Source of the DNA: Candidatus Pacearchaeota archaeon
GTDB taxonomy: Archaea > Nanobdellota > Nanobdellia > Pacearchaeales > GW2011-AR1
Direction of reading: 5' to 3'
Length of the DNA stretch: 64,000 nucleotides
NCBI GenBank assembly: GCA_023144035.1
Contig: JAGLGM010000001.1
Span: 1,091-65,090 of the forward strand
The notes under the pieces were generated by a model. The model was not told the DNA's origin. It worked only from the letters and a program-made list of their open reading frames with translations, and did not search any database. Below are positions 2,240-50,041 of the stretch, piece after piece (position 1 is the first letter of the stretch; each line of letters opens with the position of its first letter). Made by a program: the position numbers and the translations under genes.

Positions 2240-2241
2240 TT

Positions 2242-3382: not shown

Positions 3383-3460
3383 TTTTATAGTTTTCTATAT
3401 TAAATGAAATAATCTTTAGAATTGCATAAAATACTTAAGGGTTTTTATAAATAAAAAAAT

Positions 3461-4282: not shown

Positions 4283-4298
4283 TAAATTTTATTAAGAT

Positions 4299-4511: not shown

Positions 4512-4554
4512 TTTGTTTTTAATACCTCTATATTCTAAATAAAAACGTCCGTTT

Positions 4555-5112: not shown

Positions 5113-5188
5113 TTTTATGTGTTATTTTTAGTCTCCCACTTTATTAAACCTCTTTACATACTTATTGAAAGTGTCTTTGTATGTCCTA

Positions 5189-5527
5189 TTATAATAGCTT
5201 GATATAATCTCTAAATTGATTTTGATATTTATTCTTTATTATATGTTTCATGCTTACAATCTTTTTCATATACATTATATAAATAACACACTTTATTTTA
5301 TCACTTCCTAATTTGTTACAATTTAGAACACTTCTAACTTCTTTATAGATGTCTGTTATTATTGCTTCTCTCTTTGGCTCCCCAGTTAAAAACAAATAAA
5401 TAATATCAAAGATCAATCTATCAAGGGTTGTCAAAACCATGCTATTCCCTTTTCTTAATTTAATTCTTTTATAGGATTGTGGCCTGATTAATTTGTAGAA
5501 TTCATCTACTATGATATAATCCCTCAT
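5189..5527 (-). CDS. hypothetical protein
   Basis: 112-aa ORF, start/stop coupled with upstream ORF. Confidence 0.35.
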   Translation of the reverse strand: MRDYIIVDEFYKLIRPQSYKRIKLRKGNSMVLTTLDRLIFDIIYLFLTGEPKREAIITDIYKEVRSVLNCNKLGSDKIKCVIYIMYMKKIVSMKHIIKNKYQNQFRDYIKLL

Positions 5528-5976
5528 TATAAAAATTCAGAAGGAGTATACTCTTCTTCCTCCCCTTCATTATCTTTAACGTCTTCTTCATTGTCTTCGT
5601 TTCCAGAAACCAATTCAGAGTTATATTTTTCTTTATTTTCTTCATCTAAGTTTTCAATCTTCTTTGAAATGTGTGATTCTATTTCCTTTATTCCTTTTTT
5701 AATTGCTTCATCAATATCTTTTAAGAAATCTTTTTTTGTTTTATCTATTTGTTTTTTTAATTTTTCAATATCTTTTTTGAAAGCTTTTACTTCGGAATTT
5801 TTTTCATTAACTTTTTTATTTTCCAAACCTTTAAGATTTCTTGATATTTTTTGGATCTCTTTTAATTTATCTTGTGTGATAAATTCTCCATTAAGTGTTT
5901 TAAGAAATCCTAAGAGATCTCTTTCTTCAACCAGTTTCTTTTCCCCATGCCATATAAAGTTTTTTTCAAATACCAT
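5527..5976 (-). CDS. hypothetical coiled-coil/acidic protein
   Basis: 149-aa ORF, K/E-rich heptad-like sequence, acidic C-terminus. Confidence 0.4.
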   Translation of the reverse strand: MVFEKNFIWHGEKKLVEERDLLGFLKTLNGEFITQDKLKEIQKISRNLKGLENKKVNEKNSEVKAFKKDIEKLKKQIDKTKKDFLKDIDEAIKKGIKEIESHISKKIENLDEENKEKYNSELVSGNEDNEEDVKDNEGEEEEYTPSEFL

Positions 5977-6026
5977 TTTATTGATTATAAAAAGCCACAG
6001 AAAAATTAATTGTGGCCAATCTCAAA

Positions 6027-6212
6027 TTATGCAGATTTTTTTGAATGCGCATCATCAATAACAATTTCTGCAACTCTTTCAGCAAAGTTGAGGATGAATT
6101 CGTGATGTTTTAGAAAATCAAATAAACTAAACCCTCCTTCTGTTTCTTCTTTCAAAGTAAACCATAAAGCATTTTCTATTTGTTTTTCACTAATTATTTC
6201 TTTTGATGTCAT
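6027..6212 (-). CDS. small hypothetical protein
   Basis: 61-aa ORF. Confidence 0.25.
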   Translation of the reverse strand: MTSKEIISEKQIENALWFTLKEETEGGFSLFDFLKHHEFILNFAERVAEIVIDDAHSKKSA

Positions 6213-6338
6213 TATTTTTTAACCTCCTTTTTAACTTTGTTAAAAATTCTGTGAATCTATTTAACATGCAATTTTTTTGATAAATTTCTTTAACTTGTTC
6301 TAATTTATTCATTTCACAAAATAATTTTGATTTATTTT

Positions 6339-6557
6339 TCATGGTTTATTGAAAAATGATTTAGTTACGTTAAAAATATTTTTTGTAAATGCCTGAGTTT
6401 GATTAGAATAATCTTTCATAATTGTTGTGTTTGTTGCTTTTTCAATTAAGAAAACTGAGGTTGGTTTTCCTAAAACAAATATATCAAAAATCCACCATAG
6501 GATATATAGTATTATTAAAATAACTGCTACTTGAACGATTCCTTTTTTATTTTTCAT
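6339..6557 (-). CDS. small membrane protein
   Basis: 72-aa ORF with one TM helix. Confidence 0.3.
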   Translation of the reverse strand: MKNKKGIVQVAVILIILYILWWIFDIFVLGKPTSVFLIEKATNTTIMKDYSNQTQAFTKNIFNVTKSFFNKP

Positions 6558-8307
6558 CTTTTTTAGAACCCTCTAATTTAATTTCATCGTCACATTCGTC
6601 ACCTTTCGTCACATTCGTCACACTTTTGATTTTTTTCTTTATTAATTCGTCACCTTTCGTCACACTTTTAGATGGATTCGTCACAAGGATTTCTTTATTT
6701 AAGAGTAATTGTGATGATTGTGATGATTGTGATAAATTATTTACTAAATTTGGGCAGATAGGGTTAATAATTGATTCAAAAATTATAGAATTGATAATAT
6801 ATTTTGCTCCATCTCTATCTTTTGGTTCTTTATATTCTCTAAAACCAAGATTATCTATTTTAGTTGAAAATCCTTTTTCTCTAGAAACATTTTCAGAACC
6901 ATACAAATCAATATATTTCTTTCTAACTTCTTTAGGCCTAATAATATCCGTGTCTTGAATAATATCTTTTATAATTTTCAGAATTTTATAATCAAAACTA
7001 TCTTCTGGAATAAAATCTTCTCTCCTTTGTCCAGACATTTTTTCAGCAAAAGTAGAAATTTCTAAAAATAATTCATCATCAATTAATTTTGATATTGCTA
7101 AAAGGGGTTTCCAAATTTGTAAATCTCTTTTTTTTAATTTTAAATCAGAATAAAAGGATTCATTTCTATAATTTATTTCAATATTTTTCCAATACTTTAA
7201 AGAAAATAAATAAAGGTAATCTCTAATCATAGACCATTCTATATCTGAATCTACAATTTCCATTTCCCCTCTTGAATCTGTATTTGGACTTCTTGTACAT
7301 ATTTGAGTTATACATCTACTTTCAGTTGCTCCAAATAAACCCTTAATAGAAGAAATCATACAAGGAGAAAAAGTATTATAATAAATTGTCTTAAATCTGT
7401 TATTAATTTTTTCTACCCTCGGAACAGCTGAACCTTTCTTATAACTCCCATTAATTAATTCTACCCTGTTATCTGGCTCCATTTGTCCTTGATTCCATCT
7501 AAATAATTTCTCTGCTTCATCAAAATATTTAGTTGGTCTTTTCTCATGAGATTCTCTAAATAATGTTGCTTCACTTGGATTAATCATTATTCCAGTAGAA
7601 TTAAAAGAAAGATTTTTGCTAATTTCCATTCTTTTACTCTTTGCTGTTTCTTGCATACCTCTTTTCTCAGAAATAGGAAAAGCATCAAATAATTGATAAA
7701 AATAAGTTCCAATATCCCAAAGACTATTTATTTTATTCCAAATTGGGTTGTGTTCAAAAATATATTTGCCATATTGCTTTTCAACTTTATCAAAAAGTTC
7801 TTTAGGTTCTAAATCTGGAGTTTCACCTTCTCCTTTCAAAAATTCATTTATAGATTCTAAACTCCATCTCAAATTAATATTGTCTGGAACAACATCAAAT
7901 TTTATTTTATGTTCTTGCTCCATCTCTTTAGTAACTTCTAAAATATTTCTATCTGAAGAAATAATTACTGGTTTCCAAATTTGTTCTTTTGAAACAACTT
8001 CTCCAACTTTATTAGTCACAGGTTCATTTTTAGGCAAATAAATTCCATATCCAAAAAGATTCTCATTAAATTTTGTTTGAGTGAATGTTCTTGTTTTATG
8101 TACATCATCTTCATTAAAAATATAATTAATCATAATTTTCTTCTTTCTATCTAAATCTAAAGGAGAAACTTTTACATCCACTTGTCCAATTTTAACTTCG
8201 TCTTTAATTCCTTTAAGAACTATTGAACCATCATTCTTAATTTCAGAATGTTTCTCTAAGTCTTCTTTCAACATTTTAGAATATTTCCTTTTATCTTTTT
8301 TATTCAT
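6547..8307 (-). CDS. large hypothetical protein of integrated element (possible replication-associated)
   Basis: 586-aa ORF; no recognisable catalytic motif; 3' end carries phased GTGACGA repeats. Confidence 0.55.
   Translation of the reverse strand: MNKKDKRKYSKMLKEDLEKHSEIKNDGSIVLKGIKDEVKIGQVDVKVSPLDLDRKKKIMINYIFNEDDVHKTRTFTQTKFNENLFGYGIYLPKNEPVTNKVGEVVSKEQIWKPVIISSDRNILEVTKEMEQEHKIKFDVVPDNINLRWSLESINEFLKGEGETPDLEPKELFDKVEKQYGKYIFEHNPIWNKINSLWDIGTYFYQLFDAFPISEKRGMQETAKSKRMEISKNLSFNSTGIMINPSEATLFRESHEKRPTKYFDEAEKLFRWNQGQMEPDNRVELINGSYKKGSAVPRVEKINNRFKTIYYNTFSPCMISSIKGLFGATESRCITQICTRSPNTDSRGEMEIVDSDIEWSMIRDYLYLFSLKYWKNIEINYRNESFYSDLKLKKRDLQIWKPLLAISKLIDDELFLEISTFAEKMSGQRREDFIPEDSFDYKILKIIKDIIQDTDIIRPKEVRKKYIDLYGSENVSREKGFSTKIDNLGFREYKEPKDRDGAKYIINSIIFESIINPICPNLVNNLSQSSQSSQLLLNKEILVTNPSKSVTKGDELIKKKIKSVTNVTKGDECDDEIKLEGSKKDEK
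6584..6730. repeat. seven GTGACGA/TCGTCAC copies at ~10-bp phasing plus 3x GTGATGATT
   Basis: TCGTCAC at ~6587, 6597, 6607, 6617, 6657, 6667, 6678; tgtgatgattgtgatgattgtgata at ~6705-6730; inside the C-terminal coding region of 6547..8307. Confidence 0.6.
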
Positions 8308-8642
8308 CCTTTCTTTTCTCCAAATTTATGCTTTTTAGAAGCTAAAATAGATAGTTTACCCCCAATATCTAAAGATGTTAAGAGCTTGTGTAAGAGTTCT
8401 TGTTGCTTATTTATAGATTCAATTAGGTTATTTATGTCTTGAGCATTGAAATCCTTTATTTTTAAAGAAACATAATTTTTTAAAAGACATTCTAAGTTTT
8501 CAAAAAACCAAAAAGGCCGATCATCTTTTAAGAGAATCCATTGAAATTTATCTGCACTAAAAGAGTATCGTTGATCTAATTTAATAACCATTTGAAGAAA
8601 CCTCCTGAATAGAGGAAATTGCATCTTTAGACAATGAAACAC
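8304..8642 (-). CDS. hypothetical protein
   Basis: 112-aa ORF overlapping neighbour. Confidence 0.3.
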   Translation of the reverse strand: MFHCLKMQFPLFRRFLQMVIKLDQRYSFSADKFQWILLKDDRPFWFFENLECLLKNYVSLKIKDFNAQDINNLIESINKQQELLHKLLTSLDIGGKLSILASKKHKFGEKKG

Positions 8643-8766
8643 GATTGCCCCGAATATCTAAGAGATCCAAACTATTTTCATCTGCATCTAAAACCTCTCC
8701 AATGTAATAGTAATCGTTTTTAAGAATTATTTTAATTCTAAGTCCAATATAATTAATTAAGTTCAT
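8581..8766 (-). CDS. small protein with Sm-like sequence pattern
   Basis: IKIILKNDYYYIGEVLDADENSLDLLDIRGNRVSLSKDAISSI resembles Sm1/Sm2 motif spacing; weak. Confidence 0.25.
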   Translation of the reverse strand: MNLINYIGLRIKIILKNDYYYIGEVLDADENSLDLLDIRGNRVSLSKDAISSIQEVSSNGY

Positions 8767-8887
8767 TTTTATTAAATTTTAAGATTTATCCACCTCTTTA
8801 TGAATTTTAATTTTTTCTCTGGCTTCTTTTGAATCTTTTATGAATCTATTTGCTTTTTCCTTGAGATCTTCTATATTTAGAAAAGGA

Positions 8888-9031
8888 TTATTTTGATTTT
8901 CCATTTTTCTCTAAAAACTCCTTTATTGCTATTTTTATTACATTAGATCTAGAGCGGGATTCATTTTTGGCAATTTTATCTAATCTTTTTAAAAATTCCT
9001 TATCTATTTGGAAAGAGACTAAATTATTCAT
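8888..9031 (-). CDS. ribbon-helix-helix (CopG/Arc-like) DNA-binding protein, 47 aa
   Basis: Manually translated MNNLVSFQIDKEFLKRLDKIAKNESRSRSNVIKIAIKEFLEKNGKSK; beta-strand then two helices typical of RHH; below ORF-track length cutoff. Confidence 0.5.
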   Translation of the reverse strand: MNNLVSFQIDKEFLKRLDKIAKNESRSRSNVIKIAIKEFLEKNGKSK

Positions 9032-9102
9032 AGTTCATAATATTTAGTTAAGTTTATAAACTATTATTTATTTAATAAATAATAGAAATTAAATAACAGT
9101 TT

Positions 9103-9885
9103 TTGGTTAAAATGGACAAAAAAATCACAGGACAAAACCTCATAGTAGCAAACAAAAACAAAGAAATTGTTGAACATCTTTTTACCAATTATCATAGTAG
9201 ATCAGAGATATATGCAAAGATAGACCCCAAAGGGTATGACCAATATAAAAAAAGCTTAATAATTAGAGACATCCAAGGAGGAATTAAACCAAAGCCAAGA
9301 AAAGCAAAACATTATTCTAAAACACCCATCAACAATAAAATTGTTGAGGCTTTCAAAATATTTTATGCAGAAGGATTTCTAATACAACAAAAACCAATCC
9401 AATATAGGAAACAACCCAGTAAAACAGGAAAATTATACTCTTACCCTATTAAAAGATATAAATTAAATCCCAATTTTTTCTTTGATTATGTTAAAAAAGA
9501 GTTAAAAGGAAATTATTTTACTAAAAAAGAAATACTTGAAATAAGATTTTATCTTGATAATCCCAATATTAGAAAAATGATAGTTAAGAATTATAATAAA
9601 CAAAATAATTTAATAGAAAAAATAAAATATTTTTTACTTGATTTTTACGTGATTTCTGAAACCGATTTTTATTTTAGATTTTTTTCTGAAACAATCACTA
9701 ATTATAAAGAATTATTAAAATTAAATGAAAAAGGGAAAAATTCAAATATTTTATGGAGATTAAGTGATTATGAAATAGGAGGAGAAAAAGAACAAACCAA
9801 AATAAAAAAAGATATAGGGAAAAAAATTAAACTTTTATTTGGATTTGATGGAAAATTAACAAAAGAATTTTCTTCTTTATTCTAA
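9103..9885 (+). CDS. hypothetical protein
   Basis: 260-aa ORF converging on integrase gene. Confidence 0.45.
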   Translation: MVKMDKKITGQNLIVANKNKEIVEHLFTNYHSRSEIYAKIDPKGYDQYKKSLIIRDIQGGIKPKPRKAKHYSKTPINNKIVEAFKIFYAEGFLIQQKPIQYRKQPSKTGKLYSYPIKRYKLNPNFFFDYVKKELKGNYFTKKEILEIRFYLDNPNIRKMIVKNYNKQNNLIEKIKYFLLDFYVISETDFYFRFFSETITNYKELLKLNEKGKNSNILWRLSDYEIGGEKEQTKIKKDIGKKIKLLFGFDGKLTKEFSSLF

Positions 9886-11109
9886 TTTAATCTTAACTTC
9901 TTTATTCATTTTGAATCCTTCTTCAAGAACTTTTTTTAACAACTCTTTTACTTGATCTAAATCTTCTTTTTGTCTTTCCATTCTCTGTCCAACAAGTTTT
10001 TCTCTTTGTTTACTTTCTTCTAATTCATCTTTAACATCTTCAAGATTGTTATTATAATGAACTTTTTTAGCCCTTTTACGATTAATTGCAAGATAATTTA
10101 TATAAGATTCTAACCATTTGCTTTGAGGGGAATGTCCAAGTCTAAGATTTATGTCTTCAACATGCCATCCTTGAGAAAATAAATAACAGGCCATACCAGA
10201 TCTCAAATCTTTCCAAGAAGGTTTCTCTCCTTCGGGTTCACATTTAACTCCTGCTCTTTTAACAACACTATCAAATATTTGCAAAGCTTGTCTGTATTTA
10301 AAACTAAAAATAAAATCATCTTCTTTAAAGGGTACTGCTTTTCTTCTAATCATTCCTTTTTCATCCCTATATTCTGTTTCTTTTCCATATTTAAAAAGTG
10401 CATCTAAAAATCTTAATGTTTCAGGATAAATAGTTGGTTCGCTTCTTGTTTGTCTACTTCTTTTTAGATTTTCTTTAGGAAGATAAACTAAATATTCTTC
10501 TTGTTTTGTATCTCTATTTAATTGTCTCTTAAAATGTTTAACTCTCAATTCTAAAAGAGCAGTAATATTTTCACCAAGATCCCAAGCTAACCAAAATAAA
10601 GCATAATGTTGTGGCTTATGAAGAAAGTTTAACATTCTTTTGAATCCTTCTTCATTAATAAACCGAACTTGTTTTTTTCTTTTATCTGTGAAAAACTCTA
10701 AAGCATTTTCTACAACATCACTTAATCCTGCAAGTTTAAATGGTTTGGACTTGAAGACTTTATTATAATAACCTCTTCTATCTTCAAATCTCCTTCCAGA
10801 ACGATTTTTAATTTTACCATCTTCTAAATCATTATAGACTTGTTTAATTTCTTTTTCAGTTAATTTATTCCAGGCTTTATTTTTAAACCAATTATTCACA
10901 TTTCTAAATTTATTGATATAACCATAAAGAGTTTTATATGAAGACTCATCAATCTTAGGGAGACCATTTTGCCTTTTTAGTTTCTCTTCTTCCCATGCAA
11001 AAAATTTGTTAAACAAATCACGATTATATTTTATAATAGAATTATCTTCTAAAAGAGCTTTTTTTGTTTTCTTATATCTATCTTCAAAACTCATAAAATC
11101 ACTACACAA
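9877..11109 (-). CDS. tyrosine recombinase / phage-type integrase
   Basis: C-terminal boxes DLRSGMACYLFSQG and RLGHSPQSKWLESYINYL (LGH...Y) ; gene abuts 3' end of tRNA-Asp. Confidence 0.8.
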   Translation of the reverse strand: MCSDFMSFEDRYKKTKKALLEDNSIIKYNRDLFNKFFAWEEEKLKRQNGLPKIDESSYKTLYGYINKFRNVNNWFKNKAWNKLTEKEIKQVYNDLEDGKIKNRSGRRFEDRRGYYNKVFKSKPFKLAGLSDVVENALEFFTDKRKKQVRFINEEGFKRMLNFLHKPQHYALFWLAWDLGENITALLELRVKHFKRQLNRDTKQEEYLVYLPKENLKRSRQTRSEPTIYPETLRFLDALFKYGKETEYRDEKGMIRRKAVPFKEDDFIFSFKYRQALQIFDSVVKRAGVKCEPEGEKPSWKDLRSGMACYLFSQGWHVEDINLRLGHSPQSKWLESYINYLAINRKRAKKVHYNNNLEDVKDELEESKQREKLVGQRMERQKEDLDQVKELLKKVLEEGFKMNKEVKIKLE

Positions 11110-11151
11110 AAGGTATTTTTAAACTCTCCTATTGTGCAGTGTCTTACGCCA

Positions 11152-11223
11152 CGCCCACGCCGGGAATCGAACCCGGGTTGCATCCGCGACAGGGATGAGT
11201 CATAGCCGTTAGACCACGTAGGC
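11152..11223 (-). tRNA. tRNA-Asp (anticodon GUC)
   Basis: Hand-folded cloverleaf: acceptor GCCUACG/CGUGGGC, anticodon stem CAUCC/GGAUG with loop CUGUCGC, T-arm CCGGG-UUCGAUU-CCCGG, discriminator G, no encoded CCA. Confidence 0.8.
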
Positions 11224-19265: not shown

Positions 19266-19634
19266 ATGCCATATACTAATCGTGCACTTGAATTTATTTT
19301 AAAAGAAGCTAAAAAGCATGGACAAGAAGGATGGTATGTTGATATTTTTGATGATGTTACAGATTTAGGTGAATTTGATATTTATGAAGCATTAGACACT
19401 TTCGATGAAGCTCATATAGATTTTCCATGTGTAAAATGTGAAAAACTTTTTGATGTTGAATATCTTAACCCACATGAACCTTATTTAAACCATTGTAGTA
19501 AATGTATTGAAGAAGAGGAACAAGAAAAAGGATTACAGAAATATTTTAACTCACTAAGAGAAAAAGGATTATTAGAAGAACACAGTGAATGGATAATAAA
19601 ATTATATCCTGAATTTCAAAAATATCTTAATTAA
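19266..19634 (+). CDS. hypothetical zinc-ribbon protein
   Basis: CVKC...CSKC pair. Confidence 0.4.
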   Translation: MPYTNRALEFILKEAKKHGQEGWYVDIFDDVTDLGEFDIYEALDTFDEAHIDFPCVKCEKLFDVEYLNPHEPYLNHCSKCIEEEEQEKGLQKYFNSLREKGLLEEHSEWIIKLYPEFQKYLN

Positions 19635-19676: not shown

Positions 19677-20252
19677 ATGAAAAAGAGGAATTCAAAAAAG
19701 AATAAAACAATAACATTTATAATTGTATTAATTTTAATCTTAATTGCAGTATTTGGAGTTGTTAAATTAACTGGAAATTCTGTAGAAAATAAAATGACAA
19801 AAGTAACACTTGAAACAAATCACGGAAACATTGTAATTAATTTATATTCTGATATGCCAATAACAACAGGAAACTTTGAAAAACTTGTTAAAGATGGTTT
19901 TTATGACAATGTTATATTTCACAGAATAATTGATGGTTTTATGCTTCAAGGTGGAGACCCAACTGGAACAGGAGCAGGAGGACCAGGATATAATATTGAA
20001 GATGAATTTACTCATGCAGGTGGAAACAAAAATGACCATGGAACAATATCAATGGCAAATGCAGGACCAAACACTGGAGGCAGTCAATTTTTTATTAATT
20101 TAGTAGACAATAATTTCTTGGATACAAAACACCCAGTATTTGGAAAAGTTGTAGAAGGAATGGATGTTGTTGATGCAATTGCAAAAGTTCCAAAAAATGC
20201 TCAAGACAAACCTTTAGAAGATGTTATAATTATCAAAGCTATTGTTAACTAA
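19677..20252 (+). CDS. cyclophilin-type peptidyl-prolyl cis-trans isomerase with N-terminal TM anchor
   Basis: FHRIIDGFMLQGGDP...GGSQFFINL signature of cyclophilins. Confidence 0.85.
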   Translation: MKKRNSKKNKTITFIIVLILILIAVFGVVKLTGNSVENKMTKVTLETNHGNIVINLYSDMPITTGNFEKLVKDGFYDNVIFHRIIDGFMLQGGDPTGTGAGGPGYNIEDEFTHAGGNKNDHGTISMANAGPNTGGSQFFINLVDNNFLDTKHPVFGKVVEGMDVVDAIAKVPKNAQDKPLEDVIIIKAIVN

Positions 20253-20253
20253 T
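20205..20253. repeat. 49-bp direct repeat copy 1 (3' end of cyclophilin gene)
   Basis: gacaaacctttagaagatgttataattatcaaagctattgttaactaat identical to 21333..21381; 20-bp subcopy at 20654..20673. Confidence 0.85.
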
Positions 20254-20279
20254 AATAATTCTTAAAAAGAATAAACAGC

Positions 20280-20672
20280 TTGAATTTTTATATGGATGTT
20301 ATCTACATGAAATCACCTAGTGAAATAGATTACTATATTGTAAATAAAAATTTTATGGAAATAATTTCTATTTCTAAAGATTATCTTTTTGTAATGGCCG
20401 AAGATGAAGCCATAACAGAGGGAGCTTATAAAACAATCAATATAAATAAAAAGATTTTTGAAAAAATGAAAAATCTTGCAATAGATAATAAAAGAAAGGA
20501 ACTAACAGATATTTTAAAAGAGGTTCACAATAAAAACAAAGAAATCTTAGAAAATCCACACTTACAACTAAGGATAGAAGAATCAAGATATGATCATAAT
20601 TCTGAACAGCTCGAACAAAAAAAACAAAGTTTCATAGACCACTATAAAAAAAGCAAAGCTATTGTTAACTAA
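20280..20672 (+). CDS. hypothetical protein (ends in 20-bp repeat, C-terminus KAIVN shared with cyclophilin)
   Basis: 130-aa ORF inside repeat-bounded cassette. Confidence 0.4.
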   Translation: MNFYMDVIYMKSPSEIDYYIVNKNFMEIISISKDYLFVMAEDEAITEGAYKTININKKIFEKMKNLAIDNKRKELTDILKEVHNKNKEILENPHLQLRIEESRYDHNSEQLEQKKQSFIDHYKKSKAIVN

Positions 20673-21014
20673 TTATAATAATTTAATTGTCTTTAATTCT
20701 TCTTTTAAATAAGTAATTCTTTTCACCACAATCCCCCAAATCCTATCCAAACCAACTTCAAAATAAGAATGAATAAGAATGTTTTTGAAATTTGAAAGTT
20801 CTTCCCAAGGAAATGATTTATTAATATCTCTAACTGATTTTGGAATATTTTTAACAGCTTCTCCAATAATTTCTAATCTTCTAATTACTGCATCTTGTAA
20901 TTTTGTATCTTCTTTAAATTGTTCTTTGGAGACACCTTTTGTATATTCTTCAAGTTTATCTAAACATTCTTTTATATCTCCAAGAAATAATTTATAATTT
21001 CTACTCTTTCTCAT
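20673..21014 (-). CDS. hepT: HepT (DUF86, HEPN) toxin
   Basis: RRLEIIGEAVKNIP and KNILIHSY (Rx4HxY-type) motifs; overlaps upstream MntA gene. Confidence 0.7.
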   Translation of the reverse strand: MRKSRNYKLFLGDIKECLDKLEEYTKGVSKEQFKEDTKLQDAVIRRLEIIGEAVKNIPKSVRDINKSFPWEELSNFKNILIHSYFEVGLDRIWGIVVKRITYLKEELKTIKLL

Positions 21015-21315
21015 AAATTAATACCTCTTCTTTTAGAATAGGGTTTTTTAATTCAGATCTAATTGTTTCATATTCAACTAAATCCACTTTTTTTTTAAGA
21101 ACTTTTTCTAATTCAATTTTAATTCTAATAACATCCAATAAATCGATATCTTTTTCTAGCTCAACTAAAAGATCCACATCACTATTCTTTTTTTGTTCCC
21201 CACGAACATAACTCCCAAAAATCCCTGCTTTGATTACATTATTTTTTATAAGAATAGGAAGTATTATTTTTCTAATTTCTTGAACTGAATTAACCATATA
21301 AACAATAAATAACAC
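21001..21315 (-). CDS. mntA: MntA minimal nucleotidyltransferase antitoxin
   Basis: GSYVRGEQKKNSDVDLLVEL = GSx(9-13)DxD NTase motif. Confidence 0.75.
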   Translation of the reverse strand: MLFIVYMVNSVQEIRKIILPILIKNNVIKAGIFGSYVRGEQKKNSDVDLLVELEKDIDLLDVIRIKIELEKVLKKKVDLVEYETIRSELKNPILKEEVLIYEKE

Positions 21316-21332
21316 AAGTTTTTAAGTTTATT

Positions 21333-21381
21333 GACAAACCTTTAGAAGATGTTATAATTATCAAAGCTATTGTTAACTAAT
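21333..21381. repeat. 49-bp direct repeat copy 2
   Basis: identical to 20205..20253. Confidence 0.85.
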
Positions 21382-21605
21382 TCTTTTCTCATCTCATAAC
21401 CATATGATTCAACATTATCTTTTTGTTGTTTTTTTAAACATGAATTAGCACAACAATAAAGAAGAATAAATGCCATTCCAATCCCAAATGAAGATACCAA
21501 ACGCTTTTTTCTAACTTTTTTCTCAAGTGGATTTACACGTTTCTCTTTACTAACTTTAAATCTATCATCAATTTTATGTGAAAAGTTTTTACCTACGTAT
21601 ATCAT
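21342..21605 (-). CDS. small hypothetical membrane protein (C-terminus read through repeat)
   Basis: 87-aa ORF; last 12 codons lie inside repeat copy 2. Confidence 0.25.
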   Translation of the reverse strand: MIYVGKNFSHKIDDRFKVSKEKRVNPLEKKVRKKRLVSSFGIGMAFILLYCCANSCLKKQQKDNVESYGYEMRKELVNNSFDNYNIF

Positions 21606-21749
21606 TTTTCATAAAAGAATCCATCTCCTTGAACATTTTGTCCATAATTAAAAAAATAAGAAATAATTCTTTTTAATTATTTGTATTCTATTAAGACAAT
21701 TCTATTATTATACAAAAACATTTAAATATCTCTTACATTTAAATAAATC

Positions 21750-22109
21750 ATGGAAAAAGATATTGGAAAAATAAACAAAGGAGAATTTCAAGGTTCTGTA
21801 ACTGAAATAGTTGTTGGAATCAGAGAATACAAAGGCAGAGTTGGTATTGACATAAGAGAATTTGTTACAGGTGAAAAATATACTGGTCCTACAAAAAAAG
21901 GATTAAGAATCCCTGCAGATAATTTTCAGGAATTTAAAGAAATGGTTAATTCTATAGATGAAGCAGATTTACAACCTTCTGAACCTAGCTCTGAAGAAAA
22001 TCTAGAACAACCTGCAGACCAAGAAACTTTAGATAAAAAACCAGCAGAAGATACACCTAAAGAAGACTCTAAAGAAAAAGAGCCTGATGCAGAAATGCCT
22101 GATTATTAG
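21750..22109 (+). CDS. PC4/Sub1-like ssDNA-binding domain protein with acidic tail
   Basis: GRVGIDIREFV...GPTKKGLRIPADNFQEF resembles PC4 C-terminal domain (IDIREYW...KGISL). Confidence 0.5.
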   Translation: MEKDIGKINKGEFQGSVTEIVVGIREYKGRVGIDIREFVTGEKYTGPTKKGLRIPADNFQEFKEMVNSIDEADLQPSEPSSEENLEQPADQETLDKKPAEDTPKEDSKEKEPDAEMPDY

Positions 22110-22236: not shown

Positions 22237-23286
22237 ATGATAAGCTTAAAAAAATATGTAAACAAAAGCACATTTCCAGTATCACTATTAAACATAAATA
22301 AAATAGTTGGGAAAAACCAAAATAGCTACATCTTCTCAATTGCAAACATTGCAAATAAAATTAAAGGTAATCAAAAGATATGGGGAATCAATGCTTTTAA
22401 TTATGCTAAAGAAGTTGGAGAAACTCAAGTAGCAGGAGCTAATGCTTTTAATTATGCTAAAGAAGTTGGAGAAATTCAATGGGCACTATTTAATGGAGCA
22501 AATATTGCTAAAGAAGTTAAAGAAAATCAAATAGCAGGAGCTAATGTTTTTAATTATGCTGAAGAAGTTGGAGAAATTCAATGGGCACTATTTAATGGAG
22601 CAAATATTGCAAATAAAATTAAAGACAATCAAAAGACATGGGGAATCAATGCTTTTAATTATGCTAAAGAAGTTGGAAGGGATCAAGGAGCAGGAGCTAA
22701 TGTTTTTAATTATGCTGAAGAAGTTGGAAGGGATCAAGGAGCAGTAATCTTTACATTACTTAATTATGCTAAAGAAGTTGGAGAAAATCAAGGGTCAGTC
22801 TTTAATGCTTTTAATTATGCTGAAGAAGTTGGAAGGGATCAAGGAGCAGTAATTAATGGAGCAAATATTGCTAAAGAAGTTGGAAGAGATCAAGGAGCAG
22901 TAATTAATGGAGCAAATATTGCTAAAGAAGTTGGAAGAGATCAAGGGCCAGTAATCTTTACATTACTTAATTATGCTAATAAAGCAAAAAAGCAAAAAAA
23001 TGCTTTAGTTAATATTACTAAGTCTACAGGAACAAAACAAAAAGGAGTAATTAATTATTCTCCTTTAACGGGAATTAACTTATGGCAAGATCTTCCATCT
23101 AAAATAAATTCTGCAAAAAAGAAATTTGAAAAAAAATATTTAACTCTTGAAGATAATATCAAAGAAGAAGTAATAAATGATTTAGCAAATTCTAAACAAG
23201 GTTTAATAAAATCTCTTTTTAATTACAATACAAAAAGAAATTTAGTAAAAAGAGAAGCAAGAAAATATTTGATGAACAATAAATAA
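22237..23286 (+). CDS. tandem-repeat protein (~18-20-aa units GANxxNYAKEVG...)
   Basis: About 12 units of 54-60 bp, some adjacent units identical over 54 bp (22852..22959). Confidence 0.5.
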   Translation: MISLKKYVNKSTFPVSLLNINKIVGKNQNSYIFSIANIANKIKGNQKIWGINAFNYAKEVGETQVAGANAFNYAKEVGEIQWALFNGANIAKEVKENQIAGANVFNYAEEVGEIQWALFNGANIANKIKDNQKTWGINAFNYAKEVGRDQGAGANVFNYAEEVGRDQGAVIFTLLNYAKEVGENQGSVFNAFNYAEEVGRDQGAVINGANIAKEVGRDQGAVINGANIAKEVGRDQGPVIFTLLNYANKAKKQKNALVNITKSTGTKQKGVINYSPLTGINLWQDLPSKINSAKKKFEKKYLTLEDNIKEEVINDLANSKQGLIKSLFNYNTKRNLVKREARKYLMNNK

Positions 23287-25308: not shown

Positions 25309-25431
25309 AGAAAATCAAGTTTTACTTTATTTTTATAATTTTTGGCCACATTAAAAACCTTAATTTTGTTGCCATTTTATAATAAAGATATTAAATAGAA
25401 AGCTTTAAATATCCAATAAAACTCTATATTC

Positions 25432-25620
25432 TGTCTCACTTCGGTGGGGCATGGAGAGTTTTGGACTTCGGTTCTTTGCTCTCCACTTATATTCATTTGG
25501 CTTCGGTCAAGTGATCGGGAGGGATTAGACTTCGGTTTTTTCTTTCCCACTTATATTCATTTGGCTTCGGTCAAGTGATCGGGGGTTAGACTTCGGTTTT
25601 TCTCCCACCTATATTCTTTC
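25432..25620. repeat. tandem 61-64-bp repeat (about 2.5 units) with multiple C-UUCG-G hairpins
   Basis: units start at 25464, 25528, 25589; shared core gacttcggtt...ccacttatattcatttggcttcggtcaagtgatcggg; GC-rich relative to surroundings. Confidence 0.7.
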
Positions 25621-29910: not shown

Positions 29911-32900
29911 ATGAGCTATAAAGGGGTTATAAAATTTAGGAGAGTGAAAATCAAAAAAGATCCTCTTCCAAAAGAAAAAATCATATTCTCTATTTTTTTA
30001 GGACTTTTTTTCTTTATTCTTATGGTATCTTTTTTTAATAATGCAAATCTTTGGAATACAGGAAGTGTAATTTCTGAAAATACAGGAGAATCAAAAAATA
30101 CAGCTATTATAAATTTTGTAATTGAATTAACAGATGCTAAGCATTTAGATTTTAATAAAAATTTTATATCAAATATTTATGAAGAAGTGAGAGAATTAGA
30201 CAATATTTGGAGCAAACAAATTTCTTCTGAAGAATATATTAGAGTAACTTTTGAAGAAAACTTAACTTCAAAAAAAGATATTACAATTTATCCAAGAATA
30301 ATTTCAGGAGATCCAAGAATTGAAGTTTATGAAACAAATGAAACACAATTAATTGCTGAATTTACAAATCTTATTTCAAACGAATATAACAAGGTTTTCT
30401 TGACAAAACTTATAGGAAAGCAAGATACATTTGATTTATTGATTTTAGGAGGAAGTTTAATCATTGATCACATTATTGATCCTGAAGAAATATTAACTCC
30501 TCTTTTACATGCAAACAGCCAATTAAATTCAGTGGCTCTAGATTCTGCCCAAATAACTGCAATTACATCTGATGATGCAAGTGATATTACAATTGGCAAA
30601 GCAATAATCTTAACAGTAGAAATGAGTGAATTGTCAGGAACAATAGATACTCTAACTGACGCAAACTGTAGCTTAGTTTATTCAACAGCAACAAGCTATC
30701 CTGCTGACTCTATAACTTTTGAAGTTTATGATAGTTTTGGAGGAAACCAAGTAGCTATTTCAACTCTTCCAGCTTCTGATGGAGTTGATTCATTAGTTCA
30801 TCTTTTAGATTTAGAAACAACAGGTTTGGCAGCCTCAGAAGTTACTACAATGGTAGTTTATGTAACAAATACTATTGCAGCAAAAGGTTATAATCTTTTA
30901 GTAGATCAAATATATTGTACTATTGATTACACAGAAGCAGTACCAAACACTCCTCCAACACTTTCAGGACTTCCAGAGGTCAATGATGATGAGGATTTTG
31001 GAACAAATAATTCAGTAATGGATTTATGGGATTATGCTTCTGATGCTGAAGATGCTGATAGTGTATTAACATATGGGATTAATAGTGAAAGCGAAACCTC
31101 AATTGTAGATTGTGATATCTATGATTCTCATTATATTACCTGTACTTCTCAAGCAAATGCTTCAGGTTACAGTGATGTGAATGTTTCTGTAACAGATACA
31201 GGAGGATTAAAAGATAGTGATGTATTTAGATTTACAGTTAATACTATCAATGATGATCCTTGGTCAGATTCAATTGCAAATCCTGCATCAATAAATGAAG
31301 ATTCAGGACTTAATGACAATATTGTAAGTATAACTACAATAAACACTGCATTTAGAGATGTTGAAGAGGACCAATCTCCAACAAGTTGTACTATTGCTTC
31401 TGAAACAGACACGACTGCAGTTGATTGTGAAGTAGATGGAAGCTATAATGTAGATTGTACTACTCAGGCAAATCAGTCAGGAAGCAATATAGTAACATTA
31501 AACTGTTGTGATTCTGGAAGTTCATGCACTGATATGGATACTTTTACAGTAACAGTAGATGCTGTAAATGACAATCCTTGGAATGATGGGTTGTCTAATC
31601 CAGGCAATGTTAATGAAGATTCAGGACTTGCTGATAATATAATTACAAAAGCAACACTAGACAACACATTCAGAGATGTTGAAGAGGACCAATCTCCAAC
31701 AAGTTATGCTATTCAAAGCCAGACAGGAAGTTCAATAATAAATTGTGCATTAGATGGAAGCAATAATATAGACTGCACTACTCAAGCAAATCAGTCAGGA
31801 AGTAATATAGTAACAGTAAGATTATCTGACAGCGGAACATTATATACAGAAATGACATTCACAATCACAGTAGATTCTATAAATGACCAACCATGGGTTG
31901 ACGGCTTATCAGACCCAACAAATTTAAGTTATAATTCTGGATTAAATCAAGATGTTATTTCCTCAACAGAAATTGATGATAATTTTAGAGATGTAGAAAA
32001 TGACCAAAACCCATCAAGCGTGGTTATATTATCTCAAACCCATACTGAAATAGTTAATTGTGAATTAGATGGACATGCTTTAGATTGTACAACTCAAACA
32101 AACCAGCATGGAATCTCTACTGTTACACTAAATTACACCGACGCTGAAGGATTAAGCATAACAGATTCCATGGATATAAGCATAACACCAGACACAACAA
32201 CACCAACAATCCAAGTTCAATCTCCGACAAATAATTCTTATACAGTATCTACAATTTATTTCAATGCTACTGCGAGTGAAACTATAGATACATGGATTGT
32301 AAATTATAATGGAACAAATATAACCCACACTATCAATACTTCACTAGAAGTTGAAGATGGAAACCATAACCTATTGTTGTATGCTAATGATTCTGCTAAT
32401 AATTTTGGATTAAATGATACAATTTACTTTACTGTAGATACTCAAGAACCAAGTTTAAGCAATGAATTTTCTAATGAAACAGAAATATCACAAAATGAAT
32501 TGTTCTGCCTAAATATAACTGTAACAGATTCTCTAAATTCAATTGATACTGTCTATGCAGAAGTTTGGGATACTAGTTCTTGGGCAAATTATTCAATGTC
32601 CGAAGATGGAACATCTTGTAGTGGAACTTCTATTGATGGAATTTATGGTGTAGAAATAATTGGAAGCAATGTAGGATTATGGAATTATAGTAAGGTTTAT
32701 GCAAATGATAGCTTAAATAATTTAAACAGTTATGATTTTTCAGATTTAACAATAAATGTAACTGCTCCTGCAGATTCTACTTATCCTCAATTTGCAAATT
32801 TCCAAACATATCCTTCAAATAATTCAGAATATTCTCTAAATTATAATTATCAATTTAATTCAACAATAACTTTTACTAATTCAACAGTTTATCTAAGTTT

Positions 32901-35900
32901 TAATGGGGAAAATTATAGTGCAACAAATGATACAGTAGATAATTTTTATGTTAATACTGGATCTATATCAGCAGGAACTTATGATTATTTTTGGTGGAGT
33001 TATGGAAATGGTTCTTTAAAAAATTATAATCAAAGTAACACAAAAGATTATACTATTGCAACAAATAATTCTGATTGTCAAGTATTATTTAATGAAACAT
33101 CTTCACTTGAATATGGAAATAGTTTTAGAGTATACACAGATTGTGACTCAACTTTTACACTTTATAAAAATGGAACAACAATAGATAATAATTCAGAACA
33201 AAATTTAGGAGCAGATGCTTATAATTTCACAGTTCAAAGAGCAGATGCTACAAACTATACAAATTATTATGATGAAGCACAGTTTATAATAAGTCAAGCT
33301 ACTCCTGTTATGACATATTATCTAAATAGTGTACAAAATAATATTTCACTTAATTATCCAGGAACAATTAATGCATCAGCGTATACAACAGTTGGAACAA
33401 TAAACATTTACAGAAATGGAACAAGTGTAACAAGTGAAAATAATTTAGATATTAATCTTGTTGCAGGATATTATGAATATTTATTTAATGTTACAGGTAA
33501 TGCAAATTACTCAGATGTTTCAAATGAATATTTATACTTTGAACTTAACCAAAGCACATCTGATTGTCAAGTATTATTTAATGAAACATCTTCACTTGAA
33601 TATGGAAATAGTTTTAGAGTATACACAGATTGTGACTCAACTTTTACACTTTATAAAAATGGAACAACAATAGAGAATAATTCAGAACAAAATTTAGGAG
33701 CAGATGCTTATAATTTCACAGTTCAAAGAGCAGATGCTACAAACTATACAAATTATTATGATGAAGTACAATTTATAATAAATCAAGCAATTGGAGAAGT
33801 AGCTACATATATTGATAACTTAAGAAATAATAATTCTGTGCTTTTAAATACTGAAAGATGGCTTAATGCAACTATTATAAATCCTAATTCTGGTAATATA
33901 AAATTATATTATGATGATAATCTAATAAATCAAGGAAATTCCCCTTTATCTAATCTAACTAATTTTACTAGCGAAGGAGTATTTAATATAAGTGCTATTT
34001 ATGATGGAAATGAAAATTATACTTCAGATATTGAAACTTGGTGGGTTACAGTAAGTTCAGATTCTGCACCTACAATAAATATAATTTATCCAGAAAATAC
34101 ATTTTACAACACAGACATAATTGTTTTAAATTATACAGTTGTGGACGATATAGACTTAAGCCATTGTTGGTATAGTTTGAATAATGGAACTACTAATTCT
34201 TCTTTTGATTCTAATTGTGCTAATGTAACAGGATTAACTGCAAATCAAGGAAGCAATACTTGGTTTGTATATGCAAATGATTCAATAGGACAAGAAAGTT
34301 TAGACTTTGTAACCTTTACAAAAGACACTATTTATCCAAACTTTACAAGTTATGAAAAAAACCCAGCAACACCAAATGAAGACCAAGATATTCAAGTTAA
34401 TGTTACAATAACAGAATCAAATATAGATAAAGTTATTTTAGAATGGGACTCTACAAACTATACTATCACAACTTCAAATAATAATGAATATTATTTTACA
34501 ATTAACAACGGAAACTATACAGCACATGATTCTGTAACATATTATTGGTATGCAAATGACACTGCAGGAAATATAAATAAATCAACACAACAATCTTTTA
34601 CAGTTGCAAATCAAATACCCTCGGTCTCAGCGCCAGAAGTAAATAACACAACTCCTTATACTAATGATTTAATTTCATGTAACTCAGGAACTTTCTCTGA
34701 TGATGATGCAGAAGATACTGAACAAGCAAGATATTTTAAGTGGTATGACACAGATGTTGAAATTTCAGGGCAAACTTCTCAAACTTTAGATTTAACAACA
34801 GCTGGATTGGACAAAGGAGATGTAATCTTATGTTCAATAAGAGTTTATGACGGGTATGATAATTCTTCATATCAAAACTCAAGTAATTCGGCAACAATAC
34901 AAAATTCTAATCCAATTATTTCAAATTTACAAACAACTGTAAGTTGGAATGCTAATGGTTCAACTTATACATATGATTATGAAGTCACAGATTTAGATTC
35001 TGATTCTTTTATATGGTATGATAACACAACTTTATTTAATATAAATTCTGGAACAGGTGTAATTTCAGATATACCTACAGAAAATGAAGCAGGAACTTAT
35101 TTAATTGAAATAAATGTTTCAGATGGAACAGTTAATACAACAGATATTTTTAGTTATACAATAAATGATGTGGGTTCTCCAAACATAGATTTCCAACCGC
35201 CAACAGAAACAAACGAATCCCAATTAACAAGAGATTACATACAAGTAAATATAACTGCTTCTGACAGCATTGGAATAGATACAATAACAATTTATTTATA
35301 CAATCAAACATCTCTTGTAAATGAGACAACAAATCCAACTTCACCTTACTTTGTTAACTTTACAAATTTACCAGATGAATTTTATTATTTCAACGCCACT
35401 GTTAATGATACTTCTGGAAATACAAATCAAACAGAAACAATAACTGTTTCAACAGATACAGGAGCTCCAACAATAAATTCTGTGGCTCCTACAGAAACTT
35501 CAGGAATTCACAAGAACCAAAACTATGTTGAAGTAAATGTTACTGCTTCTGACCCTAATCTTGATAAAATTATTATAAGATTATATAATTCAGCACATAC
35601 ACAAATAGACTCAACTACAACATCATCTTCTCCGAATTTTGCAAATTTCACAGGATTAAATAATGGATTATATTATTATAATGTCACAGCTAATGATACT
35701 TTTGGAAATACTGATTCATTAGAAACAAAGAATATTACTTTAGATACAACAAAGCCATCTGTGTTATATAACCCAAGTACAGATGCAGATAATTCTTTTG
35801 TAAACAGAAACTGGATTTTAATAAACATATCAGCAAATGATACTAATTTAGATTCTGCGAGAATGGAATTTGATTCAACAAATGAAACTTTTGCTAACAA

Positions 35901-38900
35901 TGACGAAAATAATTACTGGGAAAACAAAACTTCACTTTCTAATGGAGATTATAGTTTTTATAGTTGGGCAAATGATAGTGCTGAAAATTACAATTTTACA
36001 ACAACAAGAACTGTAACAGTTGATACAATAAATCCTCTAATTGATTTTGCTATAGAAACTTCCATAAATAACTCAAATTTATCACAAAATTATATTTTTG
36101 TAAATGCAACTCTCACAGAAACAAATTTCCAAAATATTACTTATAAATTATATAATTCAACCTCATTAGTAAATGAAACAATTTACACAACCCAAACATT
36201 AAACATCAACTGGACATTACTACCAAATGAAATTTATACATATAATATAACAACTTCTGATAAAGCTTCAAATTTAAATTCAACTGCGACAAGAACAATA
36301 ACATTAGATACTGTACTTCCTCAACTAAATATAATTTATCCTCAAAGTAACACTTATACTGTAGATATCACTCAGTTAAATTATACTTATACAGAAACAA
36401 TTCCAGACAAATGCTGGTGGTCAAATAATTCTGGAATATGGAATTCCTCACTGCAAACCTGCGGAACAAATTGGACAGGATTAACATCAAATGAAGGAAG
36501 CAATACATGGACAATTTATATGAATGACTCAGCAGGAAATGAAAATTCAACAAGTGTTATCTTTACAAAAGACACTGCTTATCCTGCTGTAACAATAAAC
36601 TCTCCCCTTAATCAAACTTATGATACAACCACTATATTATTTAATGTAACAGCAACAGATGGGGGAGGAATAAGTGCTTGTGAGTATAGTTTAAGTGATG
36701 GTTTAGACAATAATTCAATGAGTCAATCAGGAAATTTCTGGACAGCCACAAACTCGTCTATGATTCAGGGTTCTCATACTGTTAATTTTTATTGTAATGA
36801 TAGTTCTGGAAATTTAAATGACACAAAACAAGAGACTTTCTTTATAGATTCAATTTATCCATTAATATCTTTTACAACAGGAACAGAAAATAATGATACT
36901 AGTCTTGTTAGAAATTGGATTTTTGCAAATGTAACAGTAACAGAAAATAACTTTGAAAATATAACTTATATACTTTACAATTCTACTGAAGAAGTTAATA
37001 CAACAACTTATACTACAGAAATAAAAGAAATAAACTGGACTGGCTTATCAGATGAGGTCTATACTTATAATGTAACAATCTGTGATCTTGTAAATAAATG
37101 TAACACAACTGAAACAAGAACAATAAGATTAGATACTTCAAATCCAGAAATTTACTATAATCCAAACACAGATTCAAATAATTCTTTTGTAAATAAAAAC
37201 TGGGTTTTCATAAATATAACAGCTTCTGATTTAACTAAAGATTCAGTTAGATTAGAATGGGGTGGAACAAATGAAACTTTTAGTAATTCAGATGGAGATT
37301 TATACTGGGAAAATAAAACAGGATTATCAGAAACAGTATACAATTTCTATGCATGGATAAATGATTCTTCAGGAAATTTAAATTCAACTGCGACAAGAAC
37401 AGTTACAATTGATCTCACAAAACCTTCAATAACAAATCTTGTGGAATCTCCTACTGACCCTACAAGCTGGACATCATCATCAACTTATCAATTTAATGCA
37501 ACAATCACAGACACAAACTTAGATACTGTTTTAATTGAATTTGACAATGTAAATTATACTCCAACAAAAACAGGAGATGTTTATAATTTAACATTAAATA
37601 ATCTAGTTGCTGGAAACTACAATTATTATTGGTATGCTAATGATTCTGCAGGAAATGTTAATCAAACTTCAGATAGTTACACTATAAATAAAAATACAGA
37701 AAATTGCCAAATTCTTTTCAATGAATCTTCTCCTCAAACTTATCCTGCAACTTTTTTAGTTTATACAGATTGTAATTCTGATTTTACTTTAACAAAAAAT
37801 GGAACCACAATCTCAAATAATACTGAACAAATCCTATCTGCAAGTGCTTATAATTTTAGTGTTCAAAGAACTGACACAGTAAATTACTCAAATACAATTG
37901 ATGAATCACAATTTATTGTAAATCAAGCAACAGGAAATATCACTTTATTAATTAATGATTCTGCATTAAATCAATCAGGACCTTATGGCACACAAACAAA
38001 TGTAAGTGCAACAACTTCTTACGGAAGTGTTACTTTATATAGAAATGAAACAGAAATTACAAGCGAGAATAATGTTTATGTAACCCTTGCAGCAAATTAT
38101 TATAATTATACAGCATATTCTTCAGGAGACCAAAATCACAGTTCTGCCTCAATAACAAAATTTGTTACAATCACAAAAACAAACAGTGAAATAAATTTAA
38201 CATTAAATGAAACAAGAGGAAATATTACAATAGTTCAAGATTCTGAAATTTATCTTAATACAACAACAATTTCAGGAGATTCTAGCGCTACATTAAAAAT
38301 GTATGACTCTGGCACACTAATTAATCAAGGAAATTCCCCAATTATTAATTTAACCACTTTTAGTTCGGTTGGAGAATTTAATATTACTGGGATTTATGTT
38401 GAAAGTGAAAATTTCACAGGATATTCTGAAACATGGTGGGTAAATGTAACAGAAACCCCTGACACAGAAAATCCAAGTGTTGCTTCCCTAACTAAAACCC
38501 CTTCTAGTCCTACAACTTATTCCCTAAGTCAAATTTATGAATTTAATGCTACTATAACTGATAATAGAAATATCCATACAGTTTTGATTGAATTTGACGG
38601 AACAAACTATACTCCAACAAACCTCGTAGGAAATATTTATAATTTTACCATAAATAACTTATCAGTTGGAAATTATAATTATAGATGGTATGCAAATGAT
38701 ACTTCTGGAAACATGAATAGTACTGAAAATAGTTCTTATATAATAAATCAAGCCACACCTTCTTTAAGTTTAAATGCAAACCCAAGCTGGTCAGAAACTT
38801 ACCTAACACAAACAACTGTAACTGGCTCTGAATGTCCTGCACAATTAACAAGCGAATGTAAATTATATAGAAATGATACAGGAATTGTAGATAATCCTAA

Positions 38901-50015: not shown

Positions 50016-50041
50016 ACCTTTTATTCTATCTTATTATTTAA

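Follow-up and report, generated by a model that had tools for sequence, protein, structure and literature searches.

The DNA analysed here, referred to as the window, is a 64,000-nucleotide (nt) stretch of a Candidatus Pacearchaeota archaeon (assembly GCA_023144035.1, contig JAGLGM010000001.1), and our subject is a small locus within it, between the gene for a cyclophilin-type peptidyl-prolyl isomerase (PPIase) and a PC4-like gene, in which copies of the PPIase gene's 3′ end lie among a hypothetical gene, a HepT/MntA toxin-antitoxin (TA) pair and a small gene on the minus strand. The 49-mer GACAAACCTTTAGAAGATGTTATAATTATCAAAGCTATTGTTAACTAAT stands at 20205-20253 and again at 21333-21381 with 100% identity, and its last 20 nt (CAAAGCTATTGTTAACTAAT, hereafter the core) are present once more at 20654-20673. 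A first-pass annotation of this DNA had described the perfect 49-bp repeat and its 20-bp sub-copy, and the description proved exact: with up to three mismatches allowed, the core has exactly three matches in the 64 kb (0.02 expected) and the 29-nt left part of the 49-mer exactly two (0.00 expected). The gene content claimed in that annotation (PPIase, HepT and MntA) is likewise supported by Pfam matches. The features of the locus, with protein lengths in amino acids (aa), are the following:

19677-20252, plus strand: gene for the cyclophilin-type PPIase (Pfam PF00160, E = 2.6e-50)
20205-20253, plus strand: copy 1 (R1), comprising the last 15 codons of the PPIase gene, its stop codon and 1 nt
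20254-20291, plus strand: native spacer between the PPIase gene and the 130-aa gene (taataattcttaaaaag..cttgaatttttatgg), also present in the related loci L165 and L166
20292-20672, plus strand: conserved hypothetical gene of the '130-aa' family, its last six codons and stop derived from the PPIase tail
20654-20673, plus strand: core copy (c), a fragment of the PPIase tail that is joined in frame to the 130-aa gene and abuts the HepT stop codon
20673-21014, minus strand: gene for a HepT-like HEPN toxin of 113 aa (Pfam PF01934, E = 1.1e-26, profile positions 1-120 of 120)
21001-21297, minus strand: gene for an MntA nucleotidyltransferase antitoxin, 98 aa from the ATG at 21297 (Pfam PF18765/PF01909)
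21316-21335, minus strand: conserved element upstream of mntA-hepT, AAGTTTTTAAGTTTATTGAC, whose last 3 nt overlap copy 2
21333-21381, plus strand: copy 2 (R2), non-coding on the plus strand; on the minus strand it gives the 87-aa gene its last 13 codons and stop
21342-21605, minus strand: gene for a small protein of 87 aa, with one homologue, P0134 (76 aa, 45% identity, E = 3e-8)
21750-22109, plus strand: PC4-like gene (Pfam PF02229), the conserved right border of the variable spot described below

The native PPIase C-terminus reads ..DKPLEDVIIIKAIVN before the stop codon, and the 30 closest homologues listed share the conserved C-terminal motif DKPLEDVxIIKAxxx. Translation confirms two further points of the earlier description, namely that the PPIase and the 130-aa open reading frame (ORF) have the common C-terminal end KAIVN and that the 87-aa ORF runs into copy 2. 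The bases GCT ATT GTT AAC, which are specific to this lineage, are shared by R1, c and R2. In addition, the sequence TCTT lies 3′ of both full copies after a variable (AAT)n (..CTAAT-AATAAT-TCTT at copy 1 and ..CTAAT-TCTT at copy 2), and the duplicated block therefore extends into the beginning of the spacer that natively lies downstream; the duplication measures 46-49 nt. G+C is uniform at about 25% across the insert and its surroundings, by which a compositional anomaly of the insert was rejected, and no repeats of this tail type around small modules were found elsewhere in the 64 kb.

As cargo, the locus carries an ordinary HepT/MntA pair, whose two genes form one operon, with mntA upstream of hepT and overlapping it by 14 nt (21001-21014); both look intact in the window and in L169, whose HepT is 67% identical in aa to that of the window. 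The mntA ORF extends over 21001-21315 on the minus strand (Pfam E = 9e-19); the closest MntA homologues, down to 75% identity, are all 98 aa long, and the translation carries the GSx10DxD motif GSYVRGEQKKNSDVD. The upstream element AAGTTTTTAAGTTTATTGAC is identical in L177 and matches at 19 of 20 positions in L169, and it probably serves as an archaeal promoter. HepT matches the Shewanella HepT structures 5YEP/6M6U weakly, and its sole candidate for the R-x4-6-H motif is K77-N-I-L-I-H82, with Lys for Arg; the alignments to characterised HepT proteins stop short of this region. The Lys-for-Arg motif (FKN(I/L)LIHSY) is kept in window 20673-21014 and in L169 1918-2259, two lineages that have diverged by about 20% in nt. 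The product of the 87-aa gene is probably a small membrane protein.

Comparison with related loci revealed that the interval between PPIase and PC4 is a variable spot of which 'empty' versions exist. PPIase is syntenic with S10 in relatives, and the variable region has PC4 on its right in L003, L004, L165, L166, L169, L174 and L177. Several relatives lack the TA insert: in L174, PPIase is followed directly by a homologue of the 87-aa gene and then PC4, in L165 and L170 by the 130-aa gene and PC4, and in L003 and L004 by other genes. The proposal that the HepT/MntA pair is an insertion bracketed by the duplicated PPIase 3′ end is upheld. The search for empty sites that had been recommended as a check came out both ways, however, as relatives with the duplicated arrangement exist too.

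Each block of the window has a counterpart in these loci. The 130-aa family comprises 12 homologues at 49-73% identity, and a homologue with the same spacer lies directly downstream of PPIase in L165 and in L170-L173; in L166 the same spacer precedes the homologue on a contig from which all but the final 21 nt of the PPIase gene are missing. The idea that the 130-aa gene is an inserted cassette was therefore given up in favour of a native PPIase neighbour. The 130-aa ORF of the window opens at a TTG at 20280, and the homologues back a start at the ATG at 20292, which gives 126 aa. According to the alignment, native members of the family end in ..(P/A)IL(D/N) before the stop, for example ..KSEPILD or ..KSKAILD, and CCAACA follows the native stop in all relatives; in the window alone, the last 20 nt of the gene are replaced by the PPIase tail, so that the PPIase core and then HepT stand in this place. 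In L169, the PPIase stop is directly followed by a HepT/MntA pair of 113 and 98 aa, and the 130-aa homologue comes after the pair, an order opposite to that of the window, and the junction of PPIase tail and HepT in L169 aligns base for base with the junction of core and HepT in the window, except at 2 nt. L169 also carries two adjacent tRNA-Ser genes (GGA and CGA, at 2769-2933) within what is the short PPIase/130-aa spacer of other lineages, another insertion at this place. In L174, a 76-aa homologue of the 87-aa gene is convergent with PPIase, with a 4-nt overlap, and is followed by a PC4 gene with 89% nt identity to that of the window; window 21333-21620 is colinear with the PPIase tail of L174, AATTCTT and the 76-aa gene, TCTT spacer bases included. 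Thus, every core copy in the window heads a block that directly follows PPIase in some relative.

The age of the arrangement is best seen in L177, which carries the closest MntA (84% aa identity). In window orientation, L177 reads PPIase-tail remnant, a nine-codon HepT stump, MntA, AAGTTTTTAAGTTTATTGAC, a second PPIase tail, CCAACA and PC4; the antitoxin is intact and the toxin lost, which leaves an orphan antitoxin. On the minus strand of L177 (2004-2100), the first nine HepT codons stand beside the PPIase-tail remnant without a PPIase body, and an NYN-domain gene replaces the PPIase region. The junction between promoter element and tail, directly after ttattGAC, is common to the window and L177: after AAGTTTTTAAG(T/C)TTATTGAC, the window continues with AAACCTTTAGAAG.., L177 with GCTTCTAGAAGATGTTGTG..AATTAA, which is PPIase tail, and L169 with AAAATGAATTTTAATTAAT and then the native spacer. 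The AAAATGAATTTTAATTAAT of L169 is more likely a decayed PPIase tail. We also considered GACAAA as a 6-nt microhomology that would prove illegitimate recombination, as suggested by L169, where GACAAA-ATGAATTTTAATTAAT and the native spacer follow the promoter element; this candidate is weakened by the full PPIase tail after ttattGAC in L177.

The TA genes have diverged in step with the host genes. Between the window and L177, nt identity is 87.2% for mntA with its promoter and 88.8% for PC4; between the window and L169 it is 81.3% for mntA, 79.4% for hepT, 83.5% for S10 and 78.7% for PPIase. From the shared junction and this co-divergence it follows that the TA module, together with its right-hand tail, is old, was apparently vertically inherited and was lost in several lineages. 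The initial suggestion of two successive insertions accordingly holds in so far as the TA pair was inserted, but the event was not simply recent, for the same pair and junction recur in L177 and, in decayed form, in L169. The sequence identity of the copies has a different age. The two PPIase tails of L177 are 63% identical to each other, and the PPIase tails of relatives differ from that of the window at 8-10 of 49 positions; at about 10% pairwise divergence, we infer a chance below 1% that 49 positions would have remained unchanged. A 49/49 identity with lineage-specific bases in an old duplication therefore means that the identity is recent and the duplication old, and the age of an insertion cannot be read from a perfect repeat alone.

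We suggest, at a probability of roughly 0.5, that the repeats are copies of the PPIase 3′ end that act both as scars and as substrates of recombination in the PPIase-PC4 variable spot of this Pacearchaeota lineage. The order of events and the recombination pathway given here are what we would derive from the observed colinearities, the shared junction, the co-divergence and the empty sites. An old event would have put the mntA-hepT operon at the PPIase 3′ end, duplicating the PPIase tail, and the right-hand tail copy would have become fixed beside the operon promoter, with the junction at ttattGAC. The TA module would then have been inherited vertically and repeatedly lost in relatives, plausibly via recombination between the two tails. 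Such an exchange would cleanly remove the TA pair, which fits its patchy distribution; the addictive property of a TA pair would presumably oppose loss by this route.

In a third step, alternative versions of the locus (PPIase-130-aa gene, PPIase tail-HepT/MntA and PPIase tail-87-aa gene) may have been joined end to end within the species by homologous or unequal crossing-over, or by gene conversion, in the tail copies. Crossover or conversion between a haplotype ending in the TA pair and tail and a haplotype with the PPIase tail and 87-aa gene would make copy 2 the original PPIase tail beside its original neighbour. Finally, a homeologous or microhomology join may have taken place between the similar tail of the 130-aa gene (..AAAGCAAT..TAA) and the PPIase tail (CAAAGCTATT..TAA), for which L170 offers an example with its native 130-aa tail AGTAAAGCAATCTTAGATTAA against the PPIase tail ATCAAAGCTATTGTTAACTAA; this join would have fused the 130-aa gene to the core and HepT. 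Alternatively, a circle could have arisen by recombination of the core with the native tail and then been integrated at the PPIase tail. A dedicated recombinase would not be required for the three identical core copies, and integrase-less islands moved by host recombination between short direct repeats have been documented (PMC5426353).

Several points weigh against this explanation. To account for 49/49 identity at an old junction, one has to suppose in addition that a crossover fell at the far left of R2 or that a conversion tract spanned the whole of it, and at least two events are needed, whose order is not reconstructable, as several paths give the observed order. A second haplotype of the same species was not found among the contigs identical in PPIase or in the 87-aa protein, nearly all of which share one arrangement. 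Furthermore, for recombination of the RecA/RadA type a homology of 49 nt, and above all of 20 nt, is short; three lineages would also come to share a junction under a site-specific mechanism whose crossover point is fixed; and the TA-bearing relatives compared form a small sample (n = 3).

Features of an attachment site or of mobility were sought in several ways. As previously noted for this locus, the insert (20254-21332) is free of a recombinase ORF. No integrase lies near PPIase in the loci of nine close relatives, including L003, L004, L165, L166, L169, L170, L174 and L177; no inverted-repeat arms occur in or around the core; there are no terminal inverted repeats at 20254/21332 or 20674/21332 and no transposase; and no intI-like gene is present at the locus. 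No further core copies were found in the 64-kb window, in 185,579 species-representative genomes or in viral contigs (IMG/VR), and the promoter element likewise gave no matches in the species-representative genomes and IMG/VR. A search of IMG/VR viral contigs with the MntA protein returned no TA relative. For about 160 PPIase loci, drawn from collections of genomes and metagenomes, the last 60 nt of PPIase were also compared with the 5 kb that follow, and a match longer than 15 nt occurred in the window's own contigs only. These results argue against the view of the core as an attachment site, and the recommended search for other occurrences of the 20-bp core gave none in these collections. 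Tail-like motifs in the variable regions of relatives (core, up to six mismatches) were rejected because their frequency, 0.48 per kb, is that of the background. Members of the 130-aa family have a native tail identical to the PPIase tail at 12-14 of 21 positions, which places it in the top ~5% of 470 gene tails and is no more than suggestive of an old PPIase-tail copy.

A rival explanation is a site-specific mechanism. The PPIase tail would be the attachment site for a recombinase encoded elsewhere, and the HepT/MntA and 130-aa units would be recombinase-less cassettes in tandem, each integration regenerating the site. Such accretion, which we consider rather unlikely, would account for direct repeats that correspond to the target gene's 3′ end with a third, internal copy between two units, for the empty sites in relatives, for a cargo-tail junction at the same position in the window, L177 and probably L169, and for a TA pair that follows PPIase in L169 and the 130-aa gene in the window; the architecture fits the accretion of cis-mobilizable elements (CIMEs; PMC5704250) and the tandem ssrA islands of Dehalococcoides (PMC3146451), and a tyrosine-integrase-like ORF and a serine recombinase are encoded 9-16 kb away. 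It is opposed by the searches just described (no integrase at this site in the related loci inspected, a core with neither inverted-repeat arms nor copies elsewhere in the window, genome and viral searches, and no tail duplicate in the ~160 other PPIase loci), by the unequal copy lengths (49/20/49) and by the co-divergence of TA and host genes, which thus gives no hint of a recent transfer. Together with its spacer, the 130-aa gene is, moreover, an ancestral PPIase neighbour whose native tail matches that of PPIase at only 12-14 of 21 positions, and the integrase-like ORF abuts a tRNA-Asp gene, its more likely target. A broader form of this proposal, in which the PPIase tail is a genuine attachment site where recombinase-less cassettes are inserted, stacked and excised by a recombinase elsewhere, as on an integron- or CIME-like platform in DPANN archaea, seems to us distinctly unlikely. 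The cassettes would then be the TA pair and the 130-aa and 87-aa genes, plus the 121-aa and 27x-aa genes of relatives, and the tail-like end of the 130-aa family beside CCAACA would derive from an older copy of the site that has decayed. Were a dedicated recombinase at work, the locus would be a cassette platform of a kind undescribed in archaea; the present evidence does not favour this.

Concerted evolution in place, by which an old arrangement would have its three copies kept identical by short-tract gene conversion from the PPIase tail and no haplotypes would be exchanged, is decidedly doubtful. It would reconcile the old junction seen in L177 and L169 with copies that are identical and carry lineage-specific bases, it is favoured by the closeness of the copies (within 1.1 kb of one another), and it needs no alternative haplotype, none having been found. 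Yet it leaves unexplained why the 130-aa gene lies between PPIase and the TA pair, the order being opposite in L169, and why R2 is contiguous with the 87-aa gene just as the real PPIase tail of L174 is with its homologue; conversion tracts of 20 and 49 nt that end exactly at block borders would be unusual, and the repeats were not kept alike in L177, where they have diverged freely (63%), nor in L169, where they have decayed. The perfect identity of the copies could instead point to a de novo insertion that took place recently, separately from what happened in L169 and L177, and created a long target duplication, for instance through homology-facilitated illegitimate recombination with its anchor in PPIase and its closure at GACAAA, or through repair of a staggered break. 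GACAAA (or GAC) is common to the TA upstream element of L169 and L177 and the start of the PPIase tail and could be a microhomology, as could CAAAGC at the join of the 130-aa gene and the core. We hold such an event to be very unlikely, given that the PPIase tail of L177 stands at the very same junction, where independent events at the same nucleotide would hardly be expected, that the TA genes are as diverged as the host genes and that no donor was found. An assembly artefact, in which strain variants that share the PPIase tail were concatenated, might be suspected, as the three blocks are alternative arrangements in relatives and the 20-nt overlap equals k-1 for k = 21. The contigs argue otherwise: among assemblies from ENA, NCBI and Logan, seven contigs bear the PPIase and eight the 87-aa protein, and one arrangement is present in 7/8 of the latter, the exception being one short fragment. 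In the assembly of a second sample, L002 carries PPIase, copy 1, the 130-aa gene, the core and HepT on one contig, and L176 carries the MntA start, copy 2, the 87-aa gene and PC4 on another, so that both sets of junctions were recovered separately. The repeats are also shorter than a usual short sequencing read. As all junctions were recovered in independent assemblies, the arrangement is not an assembly artefact, whose probability we regard as practically negligible.

The recombination of gene-tail copies that we favour has its closest parallels in the microcin H47 island of E. coli (PMC5426353, PMC3191183) and other integrase-less islets, which likewise combine a small cargo, direct repeats at the ends and no internal recombinase, and in which, as here, excision would restore a single repeat. 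The present locus differs in that a housekeeping gene supplies the repeat with its coding 3′ end, the host belongs to DPANN, the cargo is apparently vertically inherited, and excision and mobility are hypothetical. CIMEs and tandem accretion in the ICESt1/ICESt3 family (PMC5704250) and the ssrA islands of Dehalococcoides (PMC3146451) share with it attL-/attR-like repeats that correspond to the target 3′ end, an internal third copy between two units, the lack of an integrase inside and an intact target gene. In contrast to those systems, the site has yielded neither a cognate integrase nor a related element that bears one in the relatives inspected, each unit is a single gene or operon of 0.4-0.7 kb, and the 130-aa 'unit' is an ancestral neighbour and not an acquired one. 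Integron cassettes are likewise small, promoter-poor units that end in a similar short sequence beside a fixed point, whereas the locus has no intI and no attC-type imperfect inverted repeats, its repeat is a gene tail, and its TA unit has its own promoter and the opposite orientation. Transposons differ from it by their terminal inverted repeats and transposase, neither of which is present here, and by a short target duplication of constant size, where this locus has one of 46-49 nt.

The cargo itself resembles the type VII HepT/MntA system of Shewanella oneidensis (PDB 5YEP/6M6U; PMC7641770), in which the HepT RNase is neutralised via MntA-mediated AMPylation (PMC7641770). The operon layout, with mntA upstream of and overlapping hepT, is the same, and so are the Pfam HepT-like and MNT domains and the GSx10DxD motif of MntA. 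Unlike canonical type VII HepT, the protein has K-N-x-L-I-H where R-x4-6-H is expected, a feature conserved in L169, and its activity is a prediction. As for mobility, no core was found elsewhere in our searches, no viral contig gave a match, and TA divergence tracks host divergence.

We consider the locus a clean, small example of gene-content turnover in compact DPANN genomes, in which a housekeeping gene had its 3′ end copied and taken along with a TA module. Such tail copies would provide portable homology, through which neighbouring blocks could be stacked, swapped and lost without harm to the flanking genes.

The window holds further features of note. A 122-aa ORF of the ORFan type (19266-19634) sits between S10 and PPIase, two genes that abut in L003, L004 and L165 and are ~80 nt apart in L170; in L169 an unrelated 102-aa gene lies between them. 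The S10/PPIase interval is thus a second small variable spot, and neither a flanking repeat nor a duplication of the S10 tail is visible around the extra 122-aa gene. At the left end of the window, positions 846-11223 form a block of ORFs without Pfam matches that may be an integrated element. It contains a serine recombinase gene (4555-5112, minus strand) and a weakly tyrosine-integrase-like ORF of 410 aa (9877-11109, minus strand), which abuts a tRNA-Asp gene (11152-11223, minus strand). A link between this integrase-like ORF and the PPIase tail was rejected, given its position at tRNA-Asp and the lack of any connection found; no second copy of the 3′ part of tRNA-Asp was detected in the window.

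Upstream of the IF-2 gene, the non-coding stretch 25430-25610 is higher in G+C than its surroundings and is a candidate structured RNA. It comprises a tandem unit of ~64 nt (25461-25519 and 25525-25583, 90% identical) and five CTTCGG hairpin-like motifs; no Rfam family matched it at the gathering threshold. A 349-aa protein encoded at 22237-23286 consists of about ten tandem repeats of 17 aa (51 nt; ..NAFNYAKEVGE.Q..) and has no convincing family match. Two giant ORFs probably encode surface proteins, one of 4302 aa (29911-42819) with many diverged internal repeats, and one of 1650 aa (53761-58713) with one 49-nt internal repeat (73% identical). Finally, a 32-nt intergenic motif (..TTTAAGTATTATTATACTAGAAT..) occurs in three copies at 50030-50648, spaced 249 and 338 nt apart, and these copies may be promoter or regulatory repeats.

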